Assembly: GCA_963842525.1 (NCBI GenBank)
Contig: CAWJGT010000034.1
Coordinates: 640,001-704,000 of the forward strand
Direction of reading: 5' to 3'
DNA length: 64,000 bases
Source of the DNA: an uncultured Holophagales bacterium
GTDB lineage: Bacteria; Acidobacteriota; Thermoanaerobaculia; Multivoradales; UBA5704
The position numbers and the translations under genes are program-made. Position 1 is the stretch's first letter. Each line of letters opens with the position of its first letter. Below, piece after piece: positions 1 through 17,536 of the stretch. The notes beneath the pieces were generated by a model. That model did no database searches. It saw only the letters and a program-made list of their open reading frames with translations, and had not been told where the DNA came from.

Positions 1-1580
1 CCGGGCGACGGCAATTGCGGGAAAGGCGATCCATGGCCTGGGTGGGGTGGGCAAGACACGGCTCGCCATCGAGTATGGCTGGCAGCATGCGGCGGAGTAC
101 TCGGCCGTGCTCTTCGTAGGTGCGGGCTCGCCGGCCGATCTGCGGCGCAACCTCGCGGCGCTCTGCTCAGTGCTGGACCTTCCGGAGCAGGCGGTGCCCG
201 AGGAGGAGGTGCGGGAGGCGGCCGTCCTGCGCCGGCTCGGCGAGCTGCCGGGGTGGCTGCTGATCCTCGACAACGTCGACTCGCCCGATGCGGCCGCGGC
301 GGTGGACGCCCTCGTGGCCCGCCTCCACGGCGGCCATGTGCTGCTCACCGGCCGGCTCGCCCGCTGGGGCGCGGAGGTGGAAGCGATCGAGCTCGACCTG
401 CTCGCCGAGGAAGCCGCCGCCGCCTTCCTCCTCGCGCGCACCGCCAACTGCCGCCGTGCCACGCCGGACGACGCCGCCCACGCCACCACTCTCGCGCGGG
501 AGCTGGGCTATCTCCCCCTCGCCTTGGAACAAGCCGGTGCGGCGATCGCCGGCCGAAGGTTGACCTTCCCTGCGTACCTCAAGGACTGGGCGACGCGGCG
601 CGAGCAGGTGCTCACCTGGTTCGATCCGCGCGTGAGCCACTATCCGGTGAGCTTCGCCGTCACCTGGCAGACCTCGGTGGACCGCCTCTCCGCCCCCGCC
701 CGGCATCTCCTCGAGCGGCTCGCCTGGCTGGGTCCGGAGCCGATCCCGGAGTCGCTGTTGGAAGTGCCGGTGCCCGGGCTCCCCGAGGAGTCGAACCCGG
801 ATCCCCGCGACGCCCTCGCCGAGCTCGCGACGTGGTCCTTGGTGGCCCGCGCGGCCGAGACACCCACCTTCACCGTGCATCGGCTGGTGCAGGACGTCAC
901 CCGCCGCAGCTTGCGGAACGATCCCGGCCAGGGCCTGCTGACCGAGGCCCTCCGCTGGGTGAATGCCGCTTTCGTGGGTGAGCCCCAGGACGTCCGCACC
1001 TGGCCTGTCCTCGACCCCCTCACCCCTCACGCCCGCGCCGTCGTCGCCTTTGCAGACACCGAAGGGATCACCGAGCCCACGGCGCGGCTCATGAATCGAG
1101 CTCGCCATTTTGCTCCACACCAAGACGCTTGCAGGCGAGGCCGAGCCGCTGATGCGACGCGCGCTCGCGATCGACGAGGCGAGCTTCGGGCCGGAGCACC
1201 CCGAGGTCGCCACCGACCTCAACAACCTAGCCCTATTGCTCAAGGACACGAACCGTCTCGGCGAGGCCGAGCCGCTGATGCGACGCGCGCTCGCGATCGA
1301 TGAGGCGAGCTTCGGGACGGAGCACCCCAAAGTCGCCACCGACCTCAACAACCTGGCCCTGTTGCTCCAGGCTACGAGCCGCCTCGGCGAGGCCGAGCCG
1401 CTGATGCGACGCCATCTGGTCATCTTCCTCGAATTCACGCGCCGCACCGGGTACGAGCACCCGCGTCTGCAGGCGGCCTTCGCCAACTACCGGCTCCTGC
1501 TCCGGGAGATGGGCAAGACCGAAGAGGAAATCGAGGCGGCGTTTGCGGAGTTGGCTGGGCCGGCATCAGGCGGTGCCTGA
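1..1580 (+). CDS. NB-ARC (STAND NTPase) + TPR protein, 5' end outside window; one frameshift near 1097
   Basis: Walker A IHGLGGVGKT at the window start, Walker B WLLILDNVD, GxP-like GYLPLALEQAG and MHD-like VHRLVQ. Removing one base near 1097 joins ORF 47..1303 to the TPR ORF 1110..1580 (MNQLAILLHTK...). Confidence 0.88.
1135..1412 (+). repeat. 126-bp tandem coding repeats (42-aa TPR units)
   Basis: GEAEPLMRR occurs three times at 126-nt spacing. Two full units read ALAIDEASFG.EHP.VATDLNNLALLL with near-identical DNA. Confidence 0.85.
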
Positions 1581-1613
1581 AACAACAGATGGCGCGAAAG
1601 GCGACGGATTGCA

Positions 1614-1886
1614 GTAGAGACGCCCCAGTCCGTAACCACGAACCTACCGGGTGCACACAGTCGGGGCGTCTCATGGCCTCAGAGACCACCAAACGCCGGC
1701 AGCACACCACAAAACGCCGATATGGGTTCCACCGTGCGGCGGATGATGACGGGCTGCGTTCCCTGCGAACAGCGGCCTGTGCGGTGTTTCCTGCGCGAGA
1801 TCGAACCCGTTTCGATGGCGAGGCCTTGAGACGCCCCGACTGTTTGCACCCGGTCGTTCCGTGGTCACGGACTGGGGCGTCTCTAC
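1614..1886. repeat. GTAG-type REP doublet (REPIN/MITE-like): 67-bp inverted arms 1614-1680 and 1820-1886
   Basis: The left arm gtagagacgccccagtcc...ggggcgtctcatggcctc matches the reverse complement of 1820-1886 with a few mismatches. Each arm is itself a GAGACGCCCC/GGGGCGTCTC hairpin preceded by GTAG. It lies between convergent genes. Confidence 0.8.
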
Positions 1887-1898
1887 CCCACCGCCCGT

Positions 1899-3344
1899 CT
1901 ATCCGCTCGGCTCGAAGAATGCGTGAAACCCTAGGTGCAGCGGCGAATCCAGGCGCAGGGTGGCCCGCGGGCCGGAGGCGAGGTCGAAGGCGTCGAAGAC
2001 CAGGAAGGCGCTCTCGTTCCGGCGGGGATCGAACGACTGGCAGATCACCGCGCCCCCCTCCCCCGCAGGGTCCGGCGCGAAGGCGGGCTCGCCGCCCAGG
2101 TAGATGCCCGGCGGCGCCTGCCAGATGTCCCAACCGCCCGACCAGGAGACGGAGACGACCTGGTCGAAAAACTTGCGCCCGTTGCGGCCGGTCGCCGAGA
2201 TCCCCAGCATCCAGAGGTTCTGGTAGGGGCGACCGAAATGTCGCGGATCGATGGCCGGGAAATCCGGGGCCGAGCGGTAGGCCAGCTCGCGGCGGTCCAC
2301 CACCTCTCCAGCTTGGAGGTCGATGACGAACCGGACCGGGCCTCCGGGGCCAACCGTTATGAAGAGGTCCGGGAGGGTTTCGTACTGATCGTAGATCGGC
2401 CGCTCCAGCTCGACGACGTCCACCACCAGCCGGCCGTCTTCCTCGAAGACATTGATTGTATGGAGGACGTGCCCCTGCCCCACTGGCACGGTGGCGACGA
2501 GCTCGCCGGTCTCGCGCGAGGCGATCAGGAGATAGCTCCCCTGCTCGGGCTCCCAGCGCAGCGACTCCATGAGGGTCCGCCCGTCCCGCGCCAGCGCGGC
2601 CATGTTCAGATAGAGCGGCGAGGCGTGCACCACGATGTGCCGCGGTCCGAGGGCGAAGTCGTGAATGGACGACGGCCCCGCGAGGTCGAGCCGGCGGCGC
2701 CAGACGAGCCGGCCCTCAGGATCGAACCGGTAGAGGTTCACCATGGGGTGCTCGCTGGCGTAGGAGACCCCGAAGTTGAACAGCTCTCCGGTGTGCGGGT
2801 CGATCTTGGGATGGGCAGCGAACGGAGCGATCGGATTGAGGCCGCCGCCAAAATTGAAGGTACCGCGCGTCTCCAGCGTCACCGGGTCGAGCTCGTACGG
2901 GAGCCCCTGCTCGCCCAGGGCCAGCAGCCTGCCGCCGAAGGGATAGACGCTCACGTTGACCGGCGACTCCAGGGCCACGCCGCGCACCAGCCGGTCGCCC
3001 TCGAACCGCGTTCCGAAAGTGCGAAAGAGCGCCCGTCCGGCCTCCTCCTCGGCGGTCCATTTGGAGCTGCGCACGAAGCGGGTGGTGAGGTGCGCACCGC
3101 TATCGTCAAAGCGCAGGGCGCAGACCATGCCGTCGCCGTCCAGCCAGTGGCGATAGCGCAGGCCGCCTCTCTCGAAACGGGCGGGTCCGTTGAGGTAGTA
3201 GGTGCCGCGCACGAAGGCGGGGACCTCGCCTTCGACAGGCACCGGACACGAGCGCTCCGCGGGCACGAAGGCGAAGGCCCGTTCCAATCCCGGAGCGAGG
3301 TCCTCCGCCGGAGGTGCTGCAGGGAGACGCTCGGACACGATCAC
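1899..3344 (-). CDS. Carotenoid cleavage oxygenase family (RPE65/lignostilbene dioxygenase-like)
   Basis: GTYYLNGP and HWLDGDGMV motifs plus four candidate Fe-ligand His (FAAHPK, SIHDF, VLHTIN, GFHA). A GTG start at 3344 overlaps the upstream stop (GTGA). Confidence 0.9.
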   Translation of the reverse strand: MIVSERLPAAPPAEDLAPGLERAFAFVPAERSCPVPVEGEVPAFVRGTYYLNGPARFERGGLRYRHWLDGDGMVCALRFDDSGAHLTTRFVRSSKWTAEEEAGRALFRTFGTRFEGDRLVRGVALESPVNVSVYPFGGRLLALGEQGLPYELDPVTLETRGTFNFGGGLNPIAPFAAHPKIDPHTGELFNFGVSYASEHPMVNLYRFDPEGRLVWRRRLDLAGPSSIHDFALGPRHIVVHASPLYLNMAALARDGRTLMESLRWEPEQGSYLLIASRETGELVATVPVGQGHVLHTINVFEEDGRLVVDVVELERPIYDQYETLPDLFITVGPGGPVRFVIDLQAGEVVDRRELAYRSAPDFPAIDPRHFGRPYQNLWMLGISATGRNGRKFFDQVVSVSWSGGWDIWQAPPGIYLGGEPAFAPDPAGEGGAVICQSFDPRRNESAFLVFDAFDLASGPRATLRLDSPLHLGFHAFFEPSG

Positions 3345-5116
3345 CGGTGGCCTCCTCCGGCCATGGCCTGCACGGTCTCTTCCATCGCGGCGGTACCGCG
3401 GAAGCGGTCGGGCGACATCGGCTCGAAATTCCACTTCCAGGTCCGCTTGGTTTCCCGGCAGGCGGCCATCTGCTCGCGCATGGCCTCGGGATCAAAGGAC
3501 AGGTTTTCCAGGTCGATCGCACCCACGAAGTCGGGATGGGTCAGAGTCCTCGGGTCCTCCAGCACGTTTGCGGCCACGTGAGCATAGATCCAGCGCGCCA
3601 TCTCTTCCAGATTGGTGAGCTGCTGGTCGAGGAGCTGTTTGGCCTCGTCGGCCGAGACGCCGACGCGGTAGAAAAGCTCTCCCGCCTTGCCCAGGGCCCA
3701 GGCCTCGTAGAACTCGAAGAGGACGGGCTCCGGCGGCAGCTCGGTCCGGTTCACCTTCTTCCAGCGGTAGTAGTCGCGCAGGAATTCGTGCAGCTTGCGG
3801 TTGATCGGCCCCAGGCGCGAGAAGCGCCGCAGGAAACCTGGGAGGAATGCGCGGTCGGTGAACAGGTCGTTGATGAATGGGAAGACGAAGAAGCCGAAGT
3901 AGATGGCGAGCTCCCAGACATAGCGCAGCGAGTAGGCCTCCTGGTCGCCCAGGATTTCGTAGCTGATCGCGAAGCTGGGTATGTACGACTCGTAGACCGC
4001 CCGCTCCACGCCTTCGTAGAGGCGGACTTTCTGCTCCAGCTCGCGGCGGTCGCGGGTGAGGATCGCGTCCGTGACCAGCGTGTTGTAGCTGGAGATCAGA
4101 TCGCCGCCCGGGCTGTAGAGCGGATCGGTGAAGCGGCCGGCCTCCCCCACCATGGCCCAGCCGTCGGCCGAAATGGTTTGCGCGCAGTCATGGGCGAAGC
4201 TGTCGAACCCGCCCTTGCCGACGATCGTGCGGTGCGGCAGGTCACGGGCAAACATCGGGTACCGCTTGCAGACCCAGTCGATGCACTGGGCGGGCGTGCG
4301 CACCTCATTGCGGTTGATGAGGTCGGCGTCATAGACCAGGCCGAGGCTGGTGCGGCCGTGCAACGGGATCACCCAGAACCAATACCCTTCGCCGCAAAAG
4401 TGATTGGTTGCGAGCAGGGCCGGCACATGGCCGAGAGCCGCGCGGTCGGGGCGCAGGCGGATCTCGCGCGGCGACAGGTCGGTGAGCCGCTCGATATCGA
4501 CGAGGCCGTCGACCCAGAAGAAGGACGTCCCGTGATGGATCGGGCTCTGCCGCAGCAGGCCGAGCTTCTTGGCCAGGATGCGGCTGCGCCCCGAGGCATC
4601 GACGACCCAGCGCGTGCTGCCGGAGACCTCGCCCGCCTCGCTGCGGAAACGGAAGGTGTGGCGCTCGCCGCCCTTGCCGAGGTCGATCTCCAGGTCGCGG
4701 GCCGGCGCATGGAATTCGAAATTCGGGCTCTGGCGGTTGAGCCGCAGAACCTCGGCTTCGATCTTGTTACGATCGAGCTGATAGGTGACGATGTTGGACA
4801 GGCCGCGGATATAGGACTTGCTGACGTCCTCGTAGCGGTCGCTTCCGAGGCCGCTCGGCCAATAGAAGCGGAGGTTGTACTTCATATAGTGCTCGCAGAG
4901 CAGGTGCTCTTCGAGGTCCAGGACGCGCGCGTAGTAGTAGCCGCTCATCTGGACGGTCGCCTCCCCCACTTTCTGTTCCCTGCGGGGGACATCCGCCCGG
5001 CGGTCGATCATCACGATGCGCAGATCCGGATCGGCGAGCAGGAGTTGGCGGCCGAGGCAGCCCCCGGCGAGGCCCGCGCCCACGATCAGGACGTCACAGT
5101 CGACGTTTCTCTCCAT
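3341..5116 (-). CDS. Flavin-dependent halogenase-like FAD oxidoreductase (about 591 aa)
   Basis: Start MERNVDCDVLIVGAGLAG (GxGxxG), KVGEAT, HYMKYNLRFYW (candidate catalytic Lys), WFWVIPL (WxWxIP) and VGEAGRFTDPLYSPG. Confidence 0.75.
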   Translation of the reverse strand: MERNVDCDVLIVGAGLAGGCLGRQLLLADPDLRIVMIDRRADVPRREQKVGEATVQMSGYYYARVLDLEEHLLCEHYMKYNLRFYWPSGLGSDRYEDVSKSYIRGLSNIVTYQLDRNKIEAEVLRLNRQSPNFEFHAPARDLEIDLGKGGERHTFRFRSEAGEVSGSTRWVVDASGRSRILAKKLGLLRQSPIHHGTSFFWVDGLVDIERLTDLSPREIRLRPDRAALGHVPALLATNHFCGEGYWFWVIPLHGRTSLGLVYDADLINRNEVRTPAQCIDWVCKRYPMFARDLPHRTIVGKGGFDSFAHDCAQTISADGWAMVGEAGRFTDPLYSPGGDLISSYNTLVTDAILTRDRRELEQKVRLYEGVERAVYESYIPSFAISYEILGDQEAYSLRYVWELAIYFGFFVFPFINDLFTDRAFLPGFLRRFSRLGPINRKLHEFLRDYYRWKKVNRTELPPEPVLFEFYEAWALGKAGELFYRVGVSADEAKQLLDQQLTNLEEMARWIYAHVAANVLEDPRTLTHPDFVGAIDLENLSFDPEAMREQMAACRETKRTWKWNFEPMSPDRFRGTAAMEETVQAMAGGGHR

Positions 5117-6654
5117 GACTTCTCCACATGCGCCGCCTCCCCGGTGGGAGCGCCGCCTCCTTGAAGGATCGTCTGGGCCACCTGTTGGGCCGAGACGATC
5201 ACGGGGGTGATGCCCCCGCCAGGCCGCGTCCAATGCCCGACGAGGTACAGGTTGGCCAAGGGGCTCATCAGCTCGGGACGCCCGTCGCCGAGCTGCTCGG
5301 GCGACATCTCCCAGCCGAGCATGGCTCCGCGCTGGTTCAGCGTGAAACGCCAGGACGTGTGCGCCGAAGCGCTGGTGCTCACCACGATCCGCTCGGTGAT
5401 CCCGGGGATCATCCGTTCGAGATTGGTGTAGACGAAGCTCTCCGTCTGCCGCTTGTGCTCCGTCCAGTCGGCAACGGCGTCGTAGTCGATGTCCATCACT
5501 TTCTGGACGATCAGGATCTGCCGGCCGGGCGGCGCCATCTCCGGCTCGTAGAGGGTCGGCACGAAGATCTTGAAGCGCAGGGCGTCGCGGCCGACCCGGT
5601 CCATGTCCCAGCCGTCCCAGTAGTAGCCCTGGGCCTCCTCCAGAACGTCGGCAGGCACCCCCTCGAGGCCCAGATGGGTGAGCCAGCACGGGAAGGTGGG
5701 CCGCAGGCGGCGCAGCTCTTCGATCCTCTCGCGCCCGAGATGCCCGGCACCGATCAGCTCCTCGAAGGTCAGCCGCAGGTCGGCGTTCGAGACCACCACG
5801 CCGGAGCGCACCCGCAGCCTCTGGCCGCGGTGCGGGAGCGAGCCGCGGAGGGTCTCGATCTCAACTCCCACCGCCCGGCCATCCTCGACCAGGATGCGGT
5901 GTGCCCGCGTGCTGATCAGCAGGTGCCCCCCGCGTTCCTCGAAGCAGCGGGCCAGGTCGTCGGCGAACGCCTGCGAGCCTCCCTGGGGATAGTAGTTGCC
6001 GAGGAAGTAGGACAACCGCAGCATGGAATCGAAGACGAACGAGGTGCGGCCCGGCGGCGAGCCCCAGTGCGCGCAGTCGGCGGTGAGGAGCAGCTTGAGC
6101 TTGGGATCGCGGAACCAGCGGTCGAGGGCCTGGCGGACAGTGAGGTCGACGTACGGCCGCAGGCGCTCGAGCTGGTTCAGGGGCCGGCCGCGGAAGTAAT
6201 GGAGCAGGCCCAGGAGGTAGCACTCGCGGACCGCGGCGAAGAACGAGTCGAGGGCCGCGGCCTCGTCCGGGAACTCGGCCTTGACCTTGACCAGGTAGTC
6301 GTCGAGATCGGCCGGCACGGCGAAACGCGAGCCGTCCGGGAAGTGGAAGGTGTCCACCGGGTCCATCTTGACCCAGCCGGTGGTGACGCCGATTTCGGCG
6401 AGGAGCCGGCCGGTCAGGGTGTCCGGGTTGCCCAGCAGCGGATAGAAATGGGTCGCGGCGTCGAAGGTGTAGCCGCCGCGGCGGAAGGTGCTGCAATAGC
6501 CGCCCACCATGTAGTGCTGCTCCACCAGCAGGACCCGGAGGCCCCGGCGCGCCAGCAGGTTGGCGGTGATGAGGCCGCCGATGCCGGCACCGATCACGAC
6601 CGCGTCGTAGGTCGGATCGGGCGAGCGGCGCAATCCGCGGAAGGGCCTCTTCAC
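5086..6654 (-). CDS. Phytoene desaturase/CrtISO/retinol-saturase family FAD oxidoreductase
   Basis: YDAVVIGAGIGGL, GGYCSTFRRGGYTFD, YPQGGSQA and C-terminal LYLVGHWTRPGGGI. Confidence 0.85.
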   Translation of the reverse strand: MKRPFRGLRRSPDPTYDAVVIGAGIGGLITANLLARRGLRVLLVEQHYMVGGYCSTFRRGGYTFDAATHFYPLLGNPDTLTGRLLAEIGVTTGWVKMDPVDTFHFPDGSRFAVPADLDDYLVKVKAEFPDEAAALDSFFAAVRECYLLGLLHYFRGRPLNQLERLRPYVDLTVRQALDRWFRDPKLKLLLTADCAHWGSPPGRTSFVFDSMLRLSYFLGNYYPQGGSQAFADDLARCFEERGGHLLISTRAHRILVEDGRAVGVEIETLRGSLPHRGQRLRVRSGVVVSNADLRLTFEELIGAGHLGRERIEELRRLRPTFPCWLTHLGLEGVPADVLEEAQGYYWDGWDMDRVGRDALRFKIFVPTLYEPEMAPPGRQILIVQKVMDIDYDAVADWTEHKRQTESFVYTNLERMIPGITERIVVSTSASAHTSWRFTLNQRGAMLGWEMSPEQLGDGRPELMSPLANLYLVGHWTRPGGGITPVIVSAQQVAQTILQGGGAPTGEAAHVEKSWRETSTVTS

Positions 6655-8339
6655 GCGGCCTTCCTCCCGTCCTCGGCCGCCTCGTCCGCAAAGACCGAGC
6701 CGCGGAAGATCGAGCGGCGCCGGCGCAGCATCTCCTGGATCGCCTCCTCCATCCGGCCCCGCACCTCGTGGCTGATCTCGTGCACAGTAGCTGGATCATC
6801 CGCCGCTTCGGGCGGGAAGCGGAGCTGGACCGGGATCGGCTCCAGGAACCGTGTATGCCATTTCGAGGGGAGCGGCAGGCCGGGCAGCGGGAAGGTCGGC
6901 GTGATCGGCAGGAACGGCCACTCGGCCACCCGCCGGACCAGCTTCGAATCGACGCGCGCCAGGATCGGGTAGATCTCGGCGCTCCCCACGGTGACGAAGG
7001 GCACGATGGGAGCGCGGTTGCGCAGGGCCATCTTCACGTACTCGTCGCGGCCGAACTTGCCGAGCCGGTAGGCGTCCCGGTACATGGTGAAGGCGCCCTG
7101 GATCCCTTCCGGGAACATGCCCAGCATCCCTTCGCGGGCGAGCACCCAGTCGGCGTTCTCCTGGCAGGCCACGATGCCGCCGAGCTTGATCATGTAGTTG
7201 GCCAGGAACGGGAACTTGACCAGGCAGGGATGGATCAGGAAGCGCGGGATGCGGCCGGTCTCGCGCCGCAGCAGGTGAACGGCCATGACCCCGTCCCACG
7301 GCATGAAGCCACGGTGGACGCCCGTCAGCACCACCCGGCCCTGGCGCGGCACGTTCTCGATCCCGCGGTGCTCGATCCGCCAGTAGGCGTCGTGGAGGAA
7401 GCGGAAGAGGGTGCGCGACCAGGCGGCGATGTACTTCTCGTCCAGGCCGTAGTCGTCGAAGGTGGGGGCCGCGACCGGGGGTCCGTCCTTCTGTCCGAAC
7501 GCCTCCAGGACGGCCTCGGCGCTGGTCTTCGCGGGGACGAAGCCGAGCTCGCGCTCGATCTTGCGGCCCGAGACGGTCCAGGAGTGGCGCAGGTATTCGA
7601 GCTGCGCACCGGCCCAGCGCGGGCCGGCGAGACGCCGTGTCCCGGCGAGGCGCAGGGCGCCGCGGACCGTGACGGTCCCGGCCGGCGCCACGTGGTAGAC
7701 GCCCGGCTTCCCCGCTCCGCGTTCCACGGCGCAGGCCACGGCCGAGTCGAGATCGCCGGGGGCGAGGAGCTGCAGGGACGGATCGAAGCCGGCCGGCACG
7801 AACGCGGTCCGCCCGCGCAGCAGGCGCGAGAAGAAATTCTCGCCGTCGCGCGTCACGACCGGTGCCGGGCGGAGGATCAGGAGCTCCGCACCCAGCCCGG
7901 CACACCGCGACTCCGCCAGGGTCTCCAGCTCGCGCCAGGCGCGGGCGATCGGATTCTCTCCCCGCGGCTTCTGCGTCTCGGGCAGATAGCCCTGGTTGTG
8001 ATGGCTCGGGTCGTGGACCAGCGAGCTCGACAGCAGGACGACCCTGGGGGCCTGGAGAGACGCGAAGACAGCCGCGGCGTCGGCGAGGTCCGGCCGCATG
8101 CCGTCCTTGATGAGAGGCGGTCGGTAGAGGAAGACCTCACCCCCTGGCCCCCTCTCCCATCTCCCACCCGCCCGGCCCCGGGAGAGGGGGGACGCAGTTG
8201 GTGCACCTGAGGCGAGGTCGGAGCCCAGCGGCTCGAAATCTTCTGACATCGGACTCGCCGCGGAATTCCCAGCTACGTCCCCCCTCTCCCGGCGGGGGGT
8301 GGAAGGGAGATGGGAGAGGGGGACAGGGGGTGAGGTCAT
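6651..8339 (-). CDS. Degenerate NAD-epimerase/SDR-like domain fused to a PlsC-type lysophospholipid acyltransferase; REP-derived N-terminus
   Basis: The C-terminal half has GIENVP, HxxxxxD-like HRGFMPWD and FPEG. The N-terminal half has SDR-like VVLLSS and LILRPAPV but no clear GxxGxxG. RBS GAGGAGG precedes ATG 8339. Confidence 0.8.
   Translation of the reverse strand: MTSPPVPLSHLPSTPRRERGDVAGNSAASPMSEDFEPLGSDLASGAPTASPLSRGRAGGRWERGPGGEVFLYRPPLIKDGMRPDLADAAAVFASLQAPRVVLLSSSLVHDPSHHNQGYLPETQKPRGENPIARAWRELETLAESRCAGLGAELLILRPAPVVTRDGENFFSRLLRGRTAFVPAGFDPSLQLLAPGDLDSAVACAVERGAGKPGVYHVAPAGTVTVRGALRLAGTRRLAGPRWAGAQLEYLRHSWTVSGRKIERELGFVPAKTSAEAVLEAFGQKDGPPVAAPTFDDYGLDEKYIAAWSRTLFRFLHDAYWRIEHRGIENVPRQGRVVLTGVHRGFMPWDGVMAVHLLRRETGRIPRFLIHPCLVKFPFLANYMIKLGGIVACQENADWVLAREGMLGMFPEGIQGAFTMYRDAYRLGKFGRDEYVKMALRNRAPIVPFVTVGSAEIYPILARVDSKLVRRVAEWPFLPITPTFPLPGLPLPSKWHTRFLEPIPVQLRFPPEAADDPATVHEISHEVRGRMEEAIQEMLRRRRSIFRGSVFADEAAEDGRKAA
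8133..8337. repeat. CCTCACCCCC-family palindromic element pair inside a coding sequence (arms about 8133-8201 and 8269-8337)
   Basis: gacctcaccccctggccccctctcccatctccc...gggagaggggggacg is matched in inverted orientation by 8276-8337. Confidence 0.8.
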
Positions 8340-8352
8340 GGCAACAGCCTCC

Positions 8353-9570
8353 TCAGTCCACCGGACGGTTGCGGCCGTAGGTCTCGTGGGCGTCGACGAA
8401 TTCGCCGCTGGCGATGGCGCCCGCCATGGACAACTCGCCGGCGAGGAGCGTGGCGGCGGCGATCTCTGCCAAGCGCGGCGCGCCGCCCGGGCCCGCGCAG
8501 CCGAGCATCTCCAGGCACTCGCGCGCCGTGCCCAGGCCGGTGCCGCCGCCGACCGTGGCCACCGTGAGCGCCGGCAGGGTGACGCTGGCGTAGAGGTCCC
8601 CTTCCGGCGTGGCCTCGAAACAGGTGATCCCCACGGCCGAGTTGGCGACGTTGGCCACGTCCTGGCCGCAGGCGATGAAAAGGGCGGTCAAGCCGTTGGC
8701 GAAGTGGCCGTTGTAGCCGAGCGTGCCCCCCTGGAGATGGCCGAGCACGGTGTGGCGCCAGAGGTCGGCCATCTCCTGCGGCGTGGTGTGCAGGTAGGCG
8801 CGCACCACCCGCGCCGGCAGGCGCGCTCCCGCAATCACCTTCTTTCCCTTGCCGCCGGCAAAGAGCGAGCCGCTGGCCCGCTTCTCCGATTCGAGGCCGC
8901 TGAAGATGTAGTGGCGCCGGGCCCGGGTGTTGGCGAGCAGCCAGCGGCAGGCCTTGTCGGTGGCCTTGACGATCATGTTCATGCCGTGGGCGTCGCCGGT
9001 CGAATAGACGAAATGGACCATCACCTCGCGGCCCACCGGCTGCGGCTCGATGCGGAGCAGCCGGCCGTGGCGGGTGGTGGACTCGGCCTCGGTGCGCAGC
9101 GACTCGAAGCGGGCCGGCAGCTCGCGGGCGAAATCGGCCGCCTCGGCGATGCTGTCGAGCACGAACACGGGGGTGACGCGGTTCTCGTCGGCGAGCAGCC
9201 GCACCTGGGCGCCGCCCGAGCGGGTGAGGGCCACCATGCCGCGCTCGTAGGAGCGCACGAGCGCCCCTTCGGTGGTGGCCAGGGGGACGTAGACCTCGCC
9301 GCGCGCGTGCTCGCCGTCGATCTTCAGCGGGCCGGCCAGGCCGAGCGGCACCTGGACGGCGCCGATCGGGTTTTCGATGTTTCCCTGCATCGACTCGCCG
9401 GGCAGCGTGCAGGCGCCCACGTGCCGGAGGCCGGCGCCGGTCCGCTCCTCGATCCAGCGTCGCCGGGCCGCGATGTCGTCGTCGCCATAGCCCTGGCCAT
9501 CCAGGCGCGGCACCAGGTCGTGGGTCCGTTCGGGCGCCGCCGGCTCGGCGGCCTCTGGGGGCCGGCGCAC
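8353..9570 (-). CDS. Class I HMG-CoA reductase-like protein (divergent)
   Basis: ENPIG, PLATTEGALVRS, TGDAHGMNM, GYNGHFAN, CGQDVA, TVGGGT, LAGELS and C-terminal His (DAH). Probable GTG start at 9570 after GGAGG. Confidence 0.88.
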   Translation of the reverse strand: MRRPPEAAEPAAPERTHDLVPRLDGQGYGDDDIAARRRWIEERTGAGLRHVGACTLPGESMQGNIENPIGAVQVPLGLAGPLKIDGEHARGEVYVPLATTEGALVRSYERGMVALTRSGGAQVRLLADENRVTPVFVLDSIAEAADFARELPARFESLRTEAESTTRHGRLLRIEPQPVGREVMVHFVYSTGDAHGMNMIVKATDKACRWLLANTRARRHYIFSGLESEKRASGSLFAGGKGKKVIAGARLPARVVRAYLHTTPQEMADLWRHTVLGHLQGGTLGYNGHFANGLTALFIACGQDVANVANSAVGITCFEATPEGDLYASVTLPALTVATVGGGTGLGTARECLEMLGCAGPGGAPRLAEIAAATLLAGELSMAGAIASGEFVDAHETYGRNRPVD

Positions 9571-9575
9571 TCCGC

Positions 9576-10826
9576 TCAGCCTCCTTCCTGGAGGGATTCC
9601 AGAGTCGACTCCAGAGTCGATTCCAAAATAAGCGCACAGCACTGGCCGTCCGCGGCGGCGGCATGGAGCAGGCCGAGGCGCGGCCTGCGGTGGAGCCGCC
9701 GCGTCTCTGCGGCAACACCGGCCAGCGGGAACCCTTCCTCGGGCGTCTCCAGGCCGAGGACGCCCGGCAGGGCGCCGTCGCCAAAGGTGCCGAGCAGGGC
9801 GACGGCCTGGAGGGCTCCCGAGGCGCCCGGCGCCTCGCCCAGCATGGCCTTGACGGCGGTGGCCGGACGCGCCGCGGCGCGGTCGCCGAGGGCGGCGGCC
9901 ACGCCGCGCGCCTCGCAGCGGTCACCCAGGACGCTGCCGTTCGCGGAGAGACTCAGGACGTCGAGGTCTTCCGCCGCGACCGCCGCGTCCTCCAGGGCGA
10001 GCCGGACCGCGCCGGCAACGGCCTCGGCGCGCTCCTCTTCGTCGCCGCCGGAGGCATCGAAGCCCATGCCGTGGCCCCGCACTTCGGCGAGCACCCGGGC
10101 ACCGCGCGCGGTCGCGGCCTCGGCGTCCTCCAGCATCAGGACGGCCGCGCCCTCGGCCAGCGCGAACCCGTCGCGCCGGGCGTCGAACGGCACCGGCACC
10201 CCGCCGAGCCGGCCGGCGCGCTGGAAGCCGAGGAACGATTCAAAACAAAGCTCCTCGGCGCCGCCGGCGAGCACGGCATCGGCCCGGCCGCTGCGGATCA
10301 GCTCCGCGGCATAGGCGAGGGCCATCAGCCCCGAGGCCTCGCCGCCCGCCACGGTGGAGTTGACGCCGCGCAGGCCGTGCCAGATCGCCGCCTGCCCGGC
10401 CGCGGCGTTGATGACGCTGTTGGCGAAGTCCATGGGGCTGGCGTAGGAGGGGCCGAGCTGCACGGCCCGGCGGTCGAACTCGGCGATCGTCCGCACGCTG
10501 CAGAACATCGTGCCGAGCACCAGGCCCACTTCCCTCTCGGCCCGCATTTCGGCGGTCCAGCCGCTGCTTTCGAGCGCCCGTTGGACAGCCACCAGCAGAA
10601 GCCGGGCCGTGCGGTCCACGGGCCGCAGGTTGCGGTCGCCCAGGTAGGCCTGGGGATCGAACGGCCGGACCTCTCCCCCGAGCCGCGGGCCCAGGCCGTC
10701 GAGCGCGAACAGCTCGATCGGCTTCAAGGCGCTCTGCTGCGCGCAGAGCGCGGCGTGCAGGCCTTCCGGCGTGTCGCCGAGCGGCGACAGGACCCCGGCC
10801 CCGGTGACGACGACGCGGCGGCTCAT
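9576..10826 (-). CDS. Beta-ketoacyl synthase homologue lacking catalytic residues (chain-length-factor-like)
   Basis: KAS fold motifs (RVVVTGAG, FDARRDGFALAEGA). The Cys position reads GGEASG, and the two His positions read SANGS and GEAPG. Confidence 0.85.
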   Translation of the reverse strand: MSRRVVVTGAGVLSPLGDTPEGLHAALCAQQSALKPIELFALDGLGPRLGGEVRPFDPQAYLGDRNLRPVDRTARLLLVAVQRALESSGWTAEMRAEREVGLVLGTMFCSVRTIAEFDRRAVQLGPSYASPMDFANSVINAAAGQAAIWHGLRGVNSTVAGGEASGLMALAYAAELIRSGRADAVLAGGAEELCFESFLGFQRAGRLGGVPVPFDARRDGFALAEGAAVLMLEDAEAATARGARVLAEVRGHGMGFDASGGDEEERAEAVAGAVRLALEDAAVAAEDLDVLSLSANGSVLGDRCEARGVAAALGDRAAARPATAVKAMLGEAPGASGALQAVALLGTFGDGALPGVLGLETPEEGFPLAGVAAETRRLHRRPRLGLLHAAAADGQCCALILESTLESTLESLQEGG

Positions 10827-12038
10827 GCAGCCTCGCTCCGCCGGAAGATCACCGAGGCGTTATTGCCGCCGAAGGCGTAGGCGTTGTTCATCGCCACCCG
10901 CACGTCATGCTCGCGGGCCGCGTTGGGGACGTAGTCGAGGTCCTCCTCGGGCTCCTCGAGGTTCATGGTCGGCGGGATGCGGCCGGTCGCGACCGCCAGC
11001 GAGCAGACGAACGCCTCGATGGCCGAGGCGGCTCCCATGGTGTGGCCGATCATCGACTTGACCGAGCTCATCGGCGTGCGGCAGCCGGAGCCGAAGACGC
11101 GGAGCACCGCCACGGTCTCCAGGCGGTCGTTGGTCGGCGTGCCCGTGCCATGGGCGCTGATGTAGTCGACGTCCGTGGGAGCCAGCCCGGCGTCGGACAG
11201 CGCGCGCTGCATGGCCCGCGCCGCACCGTCGCCCTCGGGGTGGGCCGCGGTCATGTGATGGGCGTCGCAGGAGAGGCCGTAGCCGGCCACCTCTGCATAG
11301 ACGCGGGCGCCGCGGGCCCGTGCCCGGTCGAGCGGCTCCAGGACCAGGACGCCCGCTCCTTCGCCCGGGATCATGCCTTTGCGGTTGCGGTCGAACGGCT
11401 GGCAGGTCTCGGGCGCGATGGCGCCGAGGCGGGCGAAACCGGCGTAGGTGATGCGCGAAAAAGCGTCGGCGCCGCCGGCGAGCATCACGTCCGCCCGTCC
11501 CGAGCGCAGCACGTCCAGGGCGTGGGCAATGGCGTAGTTGCCTGCCGCGCAGGCGGTCGGGATCATGGTGTTGACGCCGCCGAAACCGAGCTCCCGCGCC
11601 ACGTGCGCGGCAATCATGTGGCATGGATAGAGGCCGATGAACTCGCCGCCCACCTGATCGATCTCGCCGGCAAGGAAGCGGTCGTTGAAGCGCTCGACCT
11701 CGCGCGGCTCGCCCGAGGTCGTGCCCATGGCCACCCCCGCCCGCCGGGGGTTCAGTCTCTCCACGCCGAGGCCGGCGTCCTCCACGGCCTGCCGGGCGGC
11801 GGCGATGGCGAGCTGCGAGGCGCGGCCGAGCCGGTCCGGGTCGAGCCGGCGTACCGAGGGGCGCGGATCGAAGCCGCGCACCTCGGCGCCGAGGTGGACG
11901 CTGAACTTGGCGGTGTTCGAACGACTCGACCGGCGCGAAACCGCTCTTGCCGGCGAGAAGGTTCGCCCACGCCTCCTCACGCCCTGCGCCGACCGGAGTC
12001 ACGACGCCGAGGCCGGTCACGGCCACCCGGACCGTCAT
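10823..12038 (-). CDS. FabF-type beta-ketoacyl-ACP synthase (active KS); frameshift near 11920
   Basis: The N-terminus MTVRVAVTGLG is in one frame and the rest is in ORF 10823..11980. Catalytic TACAAG, HGTGT and GHTMG are all present. Confidence 0.9.
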
Positions 12039-12309
12039 GCCGGGGCGGCTCCCGTTGCGGCGGAGAGCTCGGCCAGGCGGCCCTGGACCAGCGCGACCAT
12101 CTGCGGCAGGCTCTCGATCTCCTTGTAGCGCTCGTCGGGCAGCTCGAGCTTGAAGGCGAGGTCGACGTCGACCCCGATCTCGAGCAGCGACAGGGAATCC
12201 AACCGGAGTCGTCGCGCAGGCTGGCCTCGTCCGGGATCCGCTGTGGATCGAGGCCGGCGATGTTGGAGATGATCTTCTTGATCCGGGCCGTGATCTCGGC
12301 TTTGTCCAT
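12035..12309 (-). CDS. Acyl carrier protein; frameshift near 12207
   Basis: MDKAEITARIKKIISNIAG...SLRDD joins LRLDSLSLLEIGVDVDLAFKLELPDE (Ppant Ser in LDSL). Strong RBS AGGAGG. Confidence 0.88.
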
Positions 12310-12325
12310 TCCATCCTCCTAAACT

Positions 12326-12378
12326 GCGATTCATCTGTAAAAACATCAACCCCAAGACATTGACTACAGGCGATTCAT
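12326..12378. promoter_or_regulatory. 9-bp direct repeat GCGATTCAT x2 in the AT-richer spacer upstream of ACP (possible regulator site)
   Basis: GCGATTCAT at 12326-12334 and 12370-12378, 44 bp apart, in the only sizeable intergenic gap of the locus. Confidence 0.35.
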
Positions 12379-12453
12379 AGCCATCCGGCGTTACATCCCT
12401 CCTCGGCCTCAGAACCGGTAGGTCGACAGGCAAAGGCAGGCGTGGAGGGCCCC

Positions 12454-12941
12454 TCAGCCGATCCGCTCCGGCCATAGGCGCGCGAGGAGGGGGAGGAAGC
12501 TCGGGCCGGGCACGCCGGCGCCCTCTTCCCGCACCTCGGGCGCTACAAGGCCTTCCAGCAGGCTCAGCACGTCCCAGCTCACCCACCCCTCGACGATCTT
12601 GCCGTCCTCGATGCGCAGCACGTCGACGCCCGACGTCGAGGCCTCGCGGCCGGTGGGCGGCAGGCCGAGGAGGTCCCCCGTGTTGCGCCCGCGGGCGCTC
12701 CAGCGCACCACCACCATGTCGGCCTCGGCGATGATCTGCTCGGCGGTGACCCGGACCTCGCTGAAGGCCAGATGGTAGAAAAGCACGAGCTGGCCGAGCG
12801 CCTCCGGGCCGCGCGCGAAGTCGGTCTGGAACGGCACGCGCGCGTGGATCAGGCAGTCGCGGTGCAGGATCTCGTCGGCGATCGACAGGTCGCCGGAGTT
12901 CCACAAGTCTTCGCGGAATCGGCGGGCGATCGCCTTTTGGC

Positions 12942-12945
<4 letters not shown>
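12454..12945 (-). CDS. SnoaL-like ester cyclase (NTF2 fold)
   Basis: MSQKAIARRF...EQIIAEADMVVVRWSARGRNTGDLLGLPPTGR...RIEDGKIVEGW. Confidence 0.85.
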
Positions 12946-14657
<1,712 letters not shown>

Positions 14658-14664
14658 GGGCGGA

Positions 14665-17536
14665 TCAACCTCCGGCGATGGTCGCCTGCTCGGGGCTCTT
14701 GGTCCCGGCGGGCTTCGTGATGCGGTCGAGCGGCACGCTCTCGTGCTCGTGAATCTGCTGCCGCTCATTGTTGTCCTCGGGGCTGACCATCCGGCGCTTG
14801 GCGGTGATGGCCTGCGACGCCTCCTCGGCCTTGAAGCGGCGGAAAAGCTTCTCCGCCCGCTCGGCCTTCTCCGTGTTGCCCAGGGCGCGCCAGCAGAGCA
14901 TGGCCGTGTAGTGCATCTGCACGTCCTCGGGATCGACCAAGCAGACCCGGTCGAGCGCCTGCAGGGCCTCCTTGTACTGGCGCTTCAGGAACAGGACGCG
15001 GGCGATCTGGTTGAGCACCACGCGGTCGCGCGGGTACTTCGCCTCGACCGTGCGCAGCGAGCGGAGGGCCGCGTCGTAGTCGCCCTAGGCCTTCTCGATC
15101 ATGGCCTTGAAGAAGTGGATGCGGCCGAGGCTAGAATCGATCGCCAGCGCCTTCTGGATGTACGGCCGGGCCGCGTCGACCTGGCCCTCGCGGATGAGGG
15201 CGCGGGCCACGTTGAGCCAGCCGTCGGCGTACTTGGGATCGGCCTGGGTGACCCGCTGGAAGGCGTATTCGGCCCCCTTCAGGTCGCCCTGCAGCAGCAG
15301 GCCGATCCCCCAGTCGTTCCAGCGCTCCCAGTCCTCCTTGACGACCACCGGCTTCCACACCGCACCGTCCTCCCCCAGCTCGAGCTTGGCCTCGTCCGTG
15401 GCGAGGACGATGATCGGCAGGTCCGGGATCTCACCCTTGAGCTGGCCCGAGACGTTGGCCGGGACGTTCGCTTTGTCGAACGAGTAGTCGAGGCTGTTGT
15501 GGTGGGCGGAGACGAGCTCCGGCCCCTGCCCCGCCTTCGGCTGGCCGGCATAGGCGAACTGCGTGTAGTAGTGGGCGAACTTGCGGTAGTTGAGCTTCGC
15601 CGTCAGGGTGATCGGCCCGCGGGCGCCCTCCGGGACCTTCATCCGGAAGTGGACCGTGTCGGCCGCGCCGGGCGGGATCAGGCGGGCGTAGAGCGCGCTG
15701 CGCGCCTGCCAGGCGTTCCGCTTGTTGATCGGGTTGCCCTCGGCGTCGAGCGCCAGCGACTGATACCGGTGGGCTCCCGCCTCGACGGGGCCCGACCGCC
15801 CGTTCCCCTCGTCCTCGACCATGCCGCTCCAGTAGACGACCTTGCCGTCCGCGTCGCGCCCCTGGAGCTCCAGCCAGACGTCGAAGGCGTCCACCGTGCC
15901 GCCTGGGAAGAAGTGGCCGATGGCGCGCGTGCGCACGACCACGTCGACGCGCACGGTGGAGCCGGGCGGCAGCTTGAGGCCGGCCCGGTCGATCGGCGCC
16001 GCGACCTGGCCGACCTCCCGGATCACAACGGGTCCTCCCTGCTCGGCCTCCTCGCCCACCGCGAAGGTGGACATGACCTGCGGCCCGGTGCTCGCCGGGG
16101 CTGCCCGCCGCACCATGGCCGTCTCCCGTTCGCTCTCCACCACCGGCGAGACGGCGAAGATGTCGACCGTGATGAAGCCCGACTGGAGGAACTTCTTCGT
16201 GACCTCCATCTGCGTCTCGTCGCGGTTGACGAACGGCAGGGCCGTGTTGGCCGCCGGGAAGCGGTGCGAGTGGACCTTGCCGCCGCGGTTGCCGGGGTCG
16301 TTCGATGCCACCAGCGGCATGTGGCAGCCGGCGCAGGTCTTGGTCTCCGCCGGGTAGTAGAACGAGCGCGCGCCCTGTCCCGAGACGCCGCTCGCCTGCC
16401 AGTTGTCATAGTCGTTGAAGCCGCGGAACCAGCGGTAGGAGTTCACCGGCACGTCGAGGTGCACCTTGTGGCAGGAGGCGCAGAACTCGGCCGAGTCCTG
16501 CCGCATGAACGGCTTCATGAATGTATTCCGGTGCGGCTCCGGGTCGGTGTATGTGAGGAAACGGTCGACCCTCCGGATGAACGGGTTCTTGCTCGTCGCC
16601 AGCTCGTGGAGCGGCGGGTATTCGATCGTGAAGTCGCCGTTGCCCATCGAGCTGCCGACGTGCGTGATGGCATGGCACGAGGTGCAGGCCAGGCCCGCAT
16701 GCGCCTCCGGCGTGTCGATCTGCTCCTTGATCGGCCGCTCGAAACGGCCGTTGAAGAACACCGCGTGGTCGTGGCAGCCGGCGCACCACTTGGTCGGCTC
16801 CGTCCCCACCACGTCCTGCATGTACTCGATCGACTTTCTGTAGAACTGGTTGTTGAACGAGCCGAAATGGTGTGCCGAGCTGTTCCACTGCTCGTAGATG
16901 TCCTTGTGGCACTCGCCGCAGGTCTGCGAATCCATGAAGAAGTTGGACGGGATGATGCCCGCCCACGTTGGTCTTCGCCGAGGAGGGGAAGAACGGCGAC
17001 TGCGGGCCGCCGCCCTCCTCGGACATGGAGGTCGGGACGATCAGCGGGTTCTTGATGCGGTGGCTCGGGTTCGGATTGGCCTTCCGGTAGAGCGCCATGC
17101 CCCCGGGCAGCAGCACCAGCAGGGCCGCGCACGCAACGAAGGCGTTGCGGAGCCGCAGCCAGCCGCCCCCGCGCTCCGCCGCCTTGCGCCAGGCCCACGG
17201 GACGAGGGCCAGGGCCCCGAGACCGGCGGTGGCGATGTGGGTCCAGAGGAGCCACCGGTTCTGGAAGATGTTGCCCGCCCAGGTCAGCCACAGCCCGGCG
17301 AGCAGGGACAGGAGGAAGAGGGCCGCCGCAGGCGCGAGGCCGCGGACCCAATCCTCTCCCCGGTGCCGGACGAGCAGGACCGCCAGGCACACGGCCACGG
17401 CGAGGCCGAGCCCGAGGTGCAGCAGCACATTGGACATGTAGAAAACGGTCGGCGAGGCGAACGCCGCCAGATAGGCGGTGTTCACCAGCAGCACCAGGAA
17501 GAGCGCCGCGGTCCACGTTGCGAGCTTGCTTTTCAT
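14665..17536 (-). CDS. Membrane-anchored multiheme cytochrome c (5 CxxCH) with C-terminal TPRs; frameshift near 16960 and in-frame TAG at 15085-15087
   Basis: About five hydrophobic N-terminal helices (ORF 16406..17536). CGECH, CAGCH, CTSCH, CASCH and CAGCH lie in ORF 15085..16935. TPR helices continue in the same frame past the TAG (A*GDYDAALRS) into ORF 14665..15021. Confidence 0.82.

Follow-up and report, generated by a model that had tools for sequence, protein, structure and literature searches.

The operon examined here occupies positions 1899-12309, on the minus strand, of a 64,000-nucleotide stretch (the window) of contig CAWJGT010000034.1 from an uncultured Holophagales bacterium (assembly GCA_963842525.1). 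Its eight consecutive genes encode, in this order, an acyl carrier protein (ACP), an active ketosynthase (KS), a chain length factor (CLF)-like KS paralogue, a protein of the 3-hydroxy-3-methylglutaryl-CoA (HMG-CoA) reductase family (HMGR), an acyltransferase, a CrtI-like flavoprotein, a halogenase-like protein, and a carotenoid cleavage oxygenase (CCO). The KS, CLF, and CrtI-like proteins are the reciprocal best matches of collinear genes in Cluster I of anammox bacteria, the same set of genes is found in other genomes far more often than chance would allow, and the HMGR-type protein shows pocket changes like those of the fatty acyl-CoA reductase FcrA. We put at about even the probability that these genes form one conserved lipid-type operon, in which a line resembling type II fatty acid synthases (FAS) or polyketide synthases (PKS) would build a modified acyl chain whose reduction would give an alcohol for incorporation into a lipid, probably an unusual one that has yet to be described.

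The genes are tightly coupled through overlaps or junctions of a few bases, and both the coupling and the gene order bear out the initial annotation of the window, which was made from the sequence letters. ATGA overlaps join the ACP gene to the KS gene and the KS gene to the CLF gene, while GTGA overlaps are found at the acyltransferase/CrtI-like and halogenase/CCO junctions; the CrtI-like and halogenase genes overlap by 31 nt, and 5 nt separate the CLF and HMGR-like genes. The probable starts of the HMGR-like (9570), halogenase-like (5116), and CCO (3344) genes lie downstream of the starts of the longest open reading frames (ORFs). The G+C content of the window is about 69%. The Pfam scan of the operon proteins supports the family of each gene, and the Pfam and NCBIfam results agree with the eight labels assigned earlier. 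No other mevalonate gene, prenyltransferase, phytoene synthase, ketoreductase (KR), or dehydratase (DH) was found among the eight genes or the scanned neighbors, and for this set the earlier statement to that effect is true.

The first gene (12035..12309, minus strand, like the seven that follow) encodes a dedicated ACP with the phosphopantetheine serine motif LDSLS. It has a ribosome-binding site (aggagg) before its ATG and contains a one-base frameshift in the assembly; the PP-binding and ACP families match its C-terminal part, and the PP-binding score is weak because only half of the frameshifted protein was scored. The KS gene (10823..12038), also with a one-base frameshift, starts at an ATG at 12038 that overlaps the ACP stop. 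Its product has the N- and C-terminal ketoacyl-synt domains, and in the alignment the Cys-His-His triad is kept, in the motifs TACAAG, SAHGTG, and IGHTMG. The CLF-like paralogue (9576..10826) has the same two domains, with Glu, Ser, and Glu at the Cys, His, and His positions. Among solved structures, the best match of the KS is 9s5h_B (7e-126), ahead of Iga11 (6kxd, 8.5e-94), FabF (1j3n, 7e-86), and the actinorhodin KS, while the CLF is best matched by another chain of the same entry, 9s5h_C (3e-63).

Cluster I of the anammox bacteria (kuste3603-3608) comprises amxACP, amxFabZ, amxFabF2, amxFabF-mut, a phytoene-desaturase homologue, and a B12 radical S-adenosylmethionine (SAM) enzyme. Entry 9s5h is presumably that of the amxFabF2/amxFabF-mut heterodimer, which is a guess on our part, as the accessible text of the preprint on this heterodimer gives no accession. 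The accessible part of that 2026 preprint (10.64898/2026.05.19.726425) describes crystal structures of the heterodimer, its decarboxylation of malonyl-ACP, and its preference for C6-C8 substrates or probes, and it names Iga11 as the closest structural homologue of amxFabF2. The triad positions of amxFabF-mut are given there as Val or Thr and Asn, Glu or Cys. According to the same source, the link between Cluster I and ladderanes is unproven, and genetics is not possible in anammox bacteria.

In all five of the anammox genomes compared, which were reached via a 16S primer, the gene directly behind the KS-CLF pair encodes the protein that best matches the CrtI-like protein (32-34% identity, E 1e-76 to 1e-86). 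The anammox counterparts of the KS and the CLF share 53-54% and 33-36% identity with the window proteins, respectively, and in the reverse search the anammox KS, CLF, and flavoprotein find the window operon as their best matches in the source genome. The amxACP sequence matches the ACP of related loci in 29 cases, with 33-35% identity in the best. The operon thus resembles Cluster I in the relative order of a dedicated ACP, an active KS, a KS partner without the triad, and a CrtI-like flavoprotein, and in both systems the second catalytic His of the CLF is replaced by Glu. It differs in having the FcrA-like reductase between the CLF and the flavoprotein, in its additional acyltransferase, halogenase, and CCO, and in its carriers, which are Acidobacteriota and other non-anammox phyla. 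In the two sets of related loci described below, the B12 radical SAM enzyme of Cluster I was found in none (0/75 and 0/63), the source genome having only distant, unlinked homologues; an anammox-type FabZ was matched in one locus of each set (L051 of 75 and L271 of 63) and is missing from the window.

The reductase gene (8353..9570) has a probable GTG start at 9570, after GGAAGGAGG, its longest ORF reaching to 9642. The product matches PF00368 with an E-value of 3e-109 and scores 330.9 bits against TIGR00533, under the NCBIfam equivalog cut-off of 441.8. Three HMGR-family genes are present in the source genome, and the operon copy is 38-44% identical to the other two. One of these adjoins genes for mevalonate kinase, diphosphomevalonate decarboxylase, a prenyl synthase, and a squalene or phytoene synthase, while the other, which has an HMG-CoA_red_N domain (contig C34:485967-487073, locus L079), adjoins a gene for an ABC1/UbiB-type kinase. 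In a tree of 111 HMGR sequences, 81 rows fall into the operon type, among which five are second copies from a locus already represented; 22 rows form the N-domain type and 8 the mevalonate type. Each of the three clades has an SH-aLRT support of 100%, and the operon type is sister to the Lad-type paralogues of the same genomes.

The four catalytic residues are kept in all three clades; in the operon clade the counts are 81/81 for Glu, Lys, and Asp and 78/81 for His. Three pocket positions separate the clades. Position 684 is Ser in the mevalonate type (8/8), Glu in the N-domain type (22/22), and Phe in the operon type (78/81). At position 735 the mevalonate type has Lys (8/8) and the N-domain type Ile or Val (22/22), while the operon type has His, Arg, Ala, or Gln and in no case Lys (0/81). 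Position 862 is Leu (8/8), Trp (22/22), and Phe (72/81), respectively. The window reductase itself has Phe for Ser684, His for Lys735, and Phe for Leu862, and the loop around Lys691 carries two changes specific to the operon type, Asn686 to Gly and Asp690 to Glu. Pfam detects no N-terminal Lad or ACP domain in the operon reductase, while the paralogue at C34:485967 has a Lad domain together with Glu684.

The available part of a 2025 paper (PMC11948995) describes FcrA as an HMGR-derived, NADPH-dependent fatty acyl-CoA reductase of Natronomonas pharaonis and 'Ca. Promineifilum breve'. FcrA keeps Glu559, Lys691, Asp767, and His866, differs from HMGR at Ser684, Lys735 (printed as Lys795), and Leu862, and leaves HMG-CoA unreduced. 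It is presented as a wax-ester enzyme, and the authors state that many fcrA genes must serve other pathways; PlsC-like genes lie beside some fcrA genes and are compared there with ElbD of myxobacterial ether-lipid synthesis. The pattern of the N-domain type (Glu684, Ile or Val at 735, Trp862) is the published FcrA pattern. Because the catalytic residues are kept while three HMG-binding residues are lost, we read the operon reductase, by its residue pattern, as a distinct subtype of FcrA-like acyl-thioester reductase, one without a part in the mevalonate pathway. Since it is embedded in a KS/CLF/ACP operon, its substrate may be ACP-bound and of another length.

The likeness to FcrA extends to the class I HMGR fold, the four catalytic residues, the replacement of Ser684, Lys735, and Leu862 with a bulky residue at the last of these, the coexistence of a true HMGR and a mevalonate operon in the genome, and the linkage to a PlsC-like gene. 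The differences are the missing Lad or fused ACP domain, Phe instead of Glu at 684 and instead of Trp at 862, and Glu and Gly in place of Asp690 and Asn686; the comparison is made with a tree that includes no reference FcrA. The earlier proposal that an HMGR-like enzyme would release the chain reductively has gained an experimental precedent in FcrA (PMC11948995, in the part available), the operon copy having similar pocket changes. An HMGR-family gene was found in 30 of 31 close relatives, the source genome included, and three or more in 20. The presence of a third HMGR copy across the family of the organism points to a physiological role in membrane or storage lipids and not to a sporadic antibiotic. 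As a side observation, a wax ester synthase/diacylglycerol acyltransferase (WS/DGAT) gene is located elsewhere in the source genome (C3:203709-204479). The organism probably also makes wax esters, and this gene fits a wax-ester role of the N-domain paralogue.

The CrtI-like gene (5086..6654) encodes a flavoprotein that matches the general Amino_oxidase domain (4e-23, above its cut-off) and the NCBIfam crtI_fam model (1e-49); against TIGR02734 it scores 169.3, under the cut-off of 238.1, and its match to the solved CrtI structure 4dgk reaches only 8e-20. In a lycopene test in Escherichia coli, the anammox phytoene-desaturase homologue, kuste3607, did not substitute for CrtI (PMC4790861, in the part available). 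The initial annotation had counted the window protein among tailoring enzymes that come from isoprenoid and carotenoid families, a view that is not borne out; the protein is the counterpart of the Cluster I phytoene-desaturase homologue, which travels with KS and CLF.

The next gene (3341..5116) encodes a protein of the flavin-dependent halogenase type with a long C-terminal extension, matched by Trp_halogenase with an E-value of 5e-5 and a score of 22.9 against a cut-off of 21. Its best solved matches are CndH (3e1t), ChlB4, Bmp2, CmlS, and PltA, which act on carrier-bound substrates. The GxGxxG motif is present in 42 of 43 aligned rows, and both the Lys aligned with Lys76 of CndH and the WxWxIP motif in all 43. 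The last gene (1899..3344), which probably starts with a GTG at 3344 overlapping the stop of the halogenase gene, encodes a CCO-family protein with a full-length RPE65 domain (2e-100) in which the four iron-binding His residues align. Its best solved match is the Synechocystis apocarotenoid oxygenase (4e-56), compared with 2e-35 for lignostilbene dioxygenase. No promoter-like or terminator-like site was found in the region 1400-2000.

The acyltransferase gene (6651..8339) encodes a degenerate extended short-chain dehydrogenase/reductase (SDR) fold followed by a lysophospholipid acyltransferase (LPLAT)/PlsC-type domain, with matches to PF01553 (1e-8, above its cut-off) and DAGAT (1.5e-6). The model of the N-terminal domain has a pLDDT of 81, and its top Foldseek match is UDP-galactose 4-epimerase (3aw9, E 2.4e-10, TM 0.68), while the sequence has no match to solved structures at E <= 1. 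Neither GxxGxxG nor YxxxK is present in the homologue alignment, with the motif positions taken from GalE, so that the earlier label "SDR-like" is appropriate for the extended-SDR fold and not for the cofactor and catalytic motifs. Across 22 homologues, three blocks are conserved (HRGFMPxDG, FPEGIxGAF, and PFVTVGSAEI); FPEGI corresponds to block III, and block I (HRGFMPxD) is of the HX6D instead of the HX4D form. The arrangement of a pseudo-SDR and a PlsC domain resembles the C-terminal half of ElbD (FadD-ACP-reductase-PlsC-like), with which we compare it by description, including that in the available part of PMC11948995. Both have an SDR-fold domain before the PlsC-type domain and a carrier protein and acyl reductase at hand; here, however, the SDR domain is without cofactor or catalytic motifs, the FcrA-like reductase is a separate protein, and there is no adenylation domain.

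Between the reductase and acyltransferase genes lies a palindromic repeat element (8110..8340), an inverted repeat with 84-nt arms of 81% complementarity. Its 231 nt supply codons 1-77 of the 562-aa acyltransferase ORF, whose part homologous to the relatives begins at about 8144, and the element gives 939 blastn high-scoring segment pairs across the genome. In the relatives the acyltransferase gene usually stands after the flavoprotein gene and is followed by ABC1-type kinases, and in the four closest relatives it is outside the cluster. Its placement in the window looks derived, because it sits behind the repeat and is outside the cluster in these four relatives. Translation of the repeat gives the proline/glycine-rich N-termini of several ORFs, that of ORF 17533-22767 among them, and a partial copy is found at 22627-22678. 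ABC1 atypical kinase genes follow the acyltransferase in many relatives (L009:14955-16640, L012:18030-19661, and the copy on contig C2, L081:4871-5569), and one also follows the Lad-type FcrA paralogue, a recurrent link to lipid genes.

The conservation of the operon was analyzed in two sets of related loci, whose 155 rows are all titled as metagenome-assembled genomes (MAGs). With the reductase as bait, 144 relatives were found in a species-representative collection and 75 loci were kept. Of these, 74 carry an Acidobacteriota-lineage label, the exception being a 3.9-kb contig labelled Gemmataceae, and the lineages include Thermoanaerobaculia, Holophagales, Blastocatellia/Pyrinomonadaceae, Vicinamibacteria, Angelobacter, Solibacter, and Bryobacteraceae. 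For the 38 loci that extend at least 9 kb in both directions, the descriptive counts are 37 for the CrtI-like gene, 32 each for KS and CLF, 27 for the weakly detected ACP, 26 for the acyltransferase, 16 for CCO, and 13 for the halogenase-like gene; the CrtI-like gene starts less than 700 nt after the reductase in 56 of the 68 loci with enough downstream DNA. The second set, obtained with a CLF alignment as bait, contains 80 loci, 63 of them with at least 3.2 kb downstream, where the corresponding counts, again descriptive, are 51 for the reductase, 47 for the CrtI-like gene, 23 for the halogenase, 22 for CCO, and 17 for the acyltransferase. MAG labels in this set include Poribacteria, Nitrospinota, Latescibacterota, Zixibacteria, 'Ca. 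Multivoradales', Deltaproteobacteria, and 'Clostridia'.

The ACP-KS-CLF-HMGR-CrtI-like genes are thus the recurring set, while the acyltransferase and the halogenase-CCO pair are frequent accessories. The co-occurrence of the homologues in the two sets upholds the earlier view that the genes constitute one conserved unit. Several loci show other combinations: KS-CLF-halogenase-CCO with no reductase or flavoprotein in L272 and L313, KS-CLF-reductase-halogenase-CCO in L317, KS-CLF-flavoprotein-halogenase in L274, and FabZ-KS-CLF-reductase-flavoprotein in L271. Because the halogenase and CCO genes stand directly after KS-CLF in L272 and L313, and in L317 with only the reductase between, they are likely to belong to the KS-CLF pathway and not to a separate carotenoid unit. 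In a sample of Acidobacteriota, the CLF was detected at E <= 1e-60 in at least 12 of 401 genomes, the source included, a lower bound with few candidates scored per genome. In Verrucomicrobiota it was detected in 0 of 79 genomes at E <= 1e-58, a result that is uninformative for want of a positive control. Some relatives have two operon-type reductase copies no more than a few kilobases apart, as in five loci from the first set and at G415:C1:4976023-4982227.

The two frameshifts bear on whether the pathway is alive in this strain. In the ACP gene the shift lies at about 12205-12208, so that ORF 11977-12309 has the frame of the N-terminal part and ORF 12035-12904 that of the C-terminal part, LDSLS motif included. 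In the KS gene it consists of an extra base at 11916-11918, the start being in another frame than the rest of the gene. When ORFs of the relatives are aligned to the window, the junctions fall at about 12190-12210 for ACP (37 queries, two of them antisense ORFs) and at about 11900-11920 for KS (20 queries). While the gene order of the initial annotation holds, two of its listed ORFs, 11977-12309 and 10823-11980, are not real proteins on account of these frameshifts, and both frameshifts and the repeat element had been missed. In soil-metagenome contigs that are 88-95% alike, one base is missing at 11916 in 4/4 runs; these contigs end at 12193-12208 and do not bridge the ACP site, and the public runs cover at most 0.11 of the stretch. 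As the contigs come from other strains, they are silent on the frameshifts of this one.

Frame changes are found elsewhere in the same assembly (9.95 Mb in 34 contigs). The rpoB gene is split over two frames (C9:670320-670723), the first 69 profile positions being in a separate 88-aa frame, while rpoC is intact; the match of the housekeeping fabZ is likewise split (C3:1630857-1631272). In the window, nonribosomal peptide synthetase (NRPS) genes overlap with truncated domains (at about 42666-43057 and 57913-58634), and a multihaem-cytochrome-like gene has a frame junction at about 16940-16950. Contig C2 carries another copy of the acyltransferase gene (C2:9376-10861), in which the frame changes twice. 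The assembly seems to carry about one indel per 10-15 kb in the regions examined. Since the rpoB, fabZ, NRPS, and cytochrome genes are split too, the ACP and KS frameshifts are probably assembly errors, and we hold this with good confidence.

What the sequences show directly is the gene content, its conservation, the orthology with the anammox module, the state of the active sites, and pocket changes of the FcrA kind. The pathway that we propose, in which each chemical step, the substrates, the chain length, the order of the steps, and the product are predicted from the sequence, would begin with the KS/CLF pair acting on the dedicated ACP, where malonyl-ACP would be decarboxylated and an acyl chain extended from malonyl units. 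The KR, DH, and possibly enoyl reductase (ER) steps would be borrowed from housekeeping fatty-acid synthesis. The CrtI-like flavoprotein may then change the saturation of the chain, probably by desaturation or isomerization, and the FcrA-type reductase would convert the acyl thioester to an alcohol in a four-electron, NADPH-dependent reaction. The pseudo-SDR/LPLAT acyltransferase could transfer the chain or the alcohol to a glycerolipid or an ester. Where present, the halogenase, being of the type that uses carrier-bound substrates, might halogenate the unsaturated carrier-bound chain, and the CCO-family dioxygenase might cleave a C=C bond of the chain.

Several points weigh against this proposal. 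The function of the anammox Cluster I module is itself unproven. Because the operon has no KR, DH, or ER gene, the chain chemistry would depend on borrowed enzymes. The reductase lacks a Lad domain and has Phe instead of Glu at 684, and the assays of FcrA used CoA and not ACP thioesters; a polar substrate is possible, since Arg590 is kept and residue 692 (Lys) is mostly Arg. The HX6D form of block I in the acyltransferase departs from HX4D, and the SDR domain looks inactive. Most loci lack the halogenase and CCO, which are thus dispensable for the core. The counts in the two locus sets are descriptive and not independent, because the baits are genes of the cluster and the sets share contigs. 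Finally, real frameshifts would mean that this strain has no working pathway.

Among the alternatives, the one closest to the initial annotation is that the operon makes a conjugated polyene, a non-isoprenoid mimic of carotenoids, in the manner of a highly reducing type II PKS such as that for ishigamide, with the CrtI-like protein and CCO acting on the polyene. Conjugated chains are recognized by CCO and CrtI-family enzymes, the operon has no ER, the halogenase-CCO pair stands directly after KS-CLF in L272 and L313, and Iga11, which belongs to the ishigamide polyene pathway and ranks second among the solved matches of the KS, is also the closest structural homologue of amxFabF2 (10.64898/2026.05.19.726425, accessible part). 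Like the Iga11/Iga12 and ApeO/ApeC systems, the operon has a KS/CLF pair, a dedicated ACP, and an LPLAT-type acyltransferase; unlike them, it has no second KS, KR, DH, ligase, thioesterase, or export gene. An aryl-polyene cluster was considered and rejected, as the second KS, KR, DH, ligase, thioesterase, and export genes are not among the eight genes or the scanned neighbors. The KS matches 7f27 (1.4e-61) and 7f28_B (2.9e-47), which we take to be aryl-polyene KS entries, far more weakly than 9s5h_B (7e-126). The lack of a dedicated KR or DH sets the operon apart from known polyene type II systems, the anammox heterodimer favored C6-C8 substrates in the accessible part of the preprint (10.64898/2026.05.19.726425), the characterized FcrA acts on saturated or monounsaturated long chains, and CCO is absent from most loci. 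We regard the polyene as improbable, and the carotenoid-mimic product and order of steps put forward earlier, being pure inference, as too strong. A ladderane-like (cyclobutane) lipid made outside the anammox bacteria is extremely unlikely: the orthology of ACP, KS, CLF, and CrtI-like proteins to Cluster I speaks for it, but the B12 radical SAM enzyme of Cluster I is matched in 0/75 and 0/63 loci and the anammox-type FabZ in only 1/75 and 1/63, and the connection of Cluster I with ladderanes is itself unproven (10.64898/2026.05.19.726425, accessible part).

It is also very unlikely that the operon belongs to an isoprenoid/carotenoid line in which the HMGR copy is a true HMG-CoA reductase that supplies mevalonate, KS/CLF/ACP provide acetoacetyl units, and desaturation of the CrtI type and cleavage by CCO follow. 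The full-length PF00368 match, the retention of the catalytic Glu, Lys, Asp, and His together with Arg590, and the fact that isoprenoids are the usual substrates of the CrtI and CCO families, the CCO being closest to an apocarotenoid oxygenase, would fit such a line. Against it stand a complete-looking mevalonate locus with its own HMGR elsewhere in the genome, the loss of the three HMG-binding residues and the score under the NCBIfam cut-off, the inability of FcrA to reduce HMG-CoA (PMC11948995, available part), and the lack of lycopene formation by the anammox CrtI-like counterpart (PMC4790861, available part). HMG-CoA synthase, prenyltransferase, and phytoene synthase were not among the genes scanned or queried in the related loci, although these families were not searched for directly. 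That the operon is a decaying pseudogene cluster in this genome, with the frameshifts and the repeat insertion as real lesions, is unlikely in our estimate. The two indels lie no more than 300 bp apart and affect both genes with which the pathway begins, a mobile-looking repeat takes the place of the start of the acyltransferase gene, and the extra base at 11916 is missing from the related soil contigs; but the essential genes rpoB and fabZ are also split, as are NRPS and cytochrome genes in the window, the remaining operon genes are open with their active-site residues kept, and the soil contigs, from other strains 88-95% alike, are uninformative for this one.

The lipid-type operon that we favor can be placed in a wider scheme, which we consider possible but doubtful. 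The ACP-KS-CLF-flavoprotein genes may represent an old multi-phylum lipid-building module, of which the anammox 'ladderane' cluster would be a specialized offshoot. In Acidobacteriota from soil, and in MAGs that are unclassified or bear the labels Poribacteria, Nitrospinota, Latescibacterota, 'Ca. Multivoradales', or Zixibacteria, the module would be coupled to a new HMGR-derived reductase subtype that acts on a carrier-bound unsaturated, sometimes halogenated chain, giving a new class of alkenyl alcohol, ether, or ester lipids that CCO could cleave to aldehyde signals. If true, this would provide the first route to test Cluster I proteins outside anammox organisms.

The KS/CLF/flavoprotein core of Cluster I has been a leading, though unproven, ladderane candidate since 2009, and a close, widespread relative in other phyla without the radical SAM step offers a comparator and a source of genes for expression. 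The operon is also a concrete, conserved case of an fcrA-type pathway that would not lead to wax esters, with a distinct pocket subtype. The position of the halogenase-CCO pair directly after KS/CLF in some genomes suggests that CCO enzymes can act on chains derived from fatty acids or polyketides, which would widen the substrate range of the family. In the open literature, exclusive of the supplements of the FcrA paper, we found no description of an HMGR/FcrA gene inside a KS/CLF/ACP operon, nor any of a Cluster I-like module in Acidobacteriota; the available parts of PMC7298704 and PMC8692599 give only 'ladderane'-type calls in Verrucomicrobia. The earlier remark that no characterized cluster has this composition thus stands for the whole, while two of its parts, Cluster I and FcrA, have already been described.

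Upstream of the ACP gene, at a distance of 145 nt, lies a SnoaL-like gene (12454..12945, minus strand; PF07366, 6e-30), which is likewise found in loci L001, L008, L015, and L024 and, in the closest relatives, may count among the genes of the unit. It is abutted by an FG-GAP/UnbV gene on the same strand (12942-14768). FG-GAP/UnbV-ASPIC and tetratricopeptide repeat (TPR) proteins are encoded near the cluster in 24 of 75 loci, a raw count that takes no account of their general abundance in these genomes (window 12942-14768 and 17533-22767; L005:14997-16763; L024:4610-9456 and 12662-14584). Genes for a LuxR-family regulator (19 loci, e.g., L062:2249-2983) and an EamA transporter (13 loci, e.g., L020:3249-4148) recur upstream of ACP in the relatives, but the window has neither. 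An Rfam scan of window positions 1-20000 gave no match. Farther along, the minus strand of the window at 39371-64000 carries a hybrid NRPS-PKS cluster, whose 3706-aa ORF contains condensation, adenylation, KS, acyltransferase, KR, and peptidyl carrier protein domains and is flanked by further condensation-adenylation-peptidyl carrier protein modules and a terminal thioesterase.

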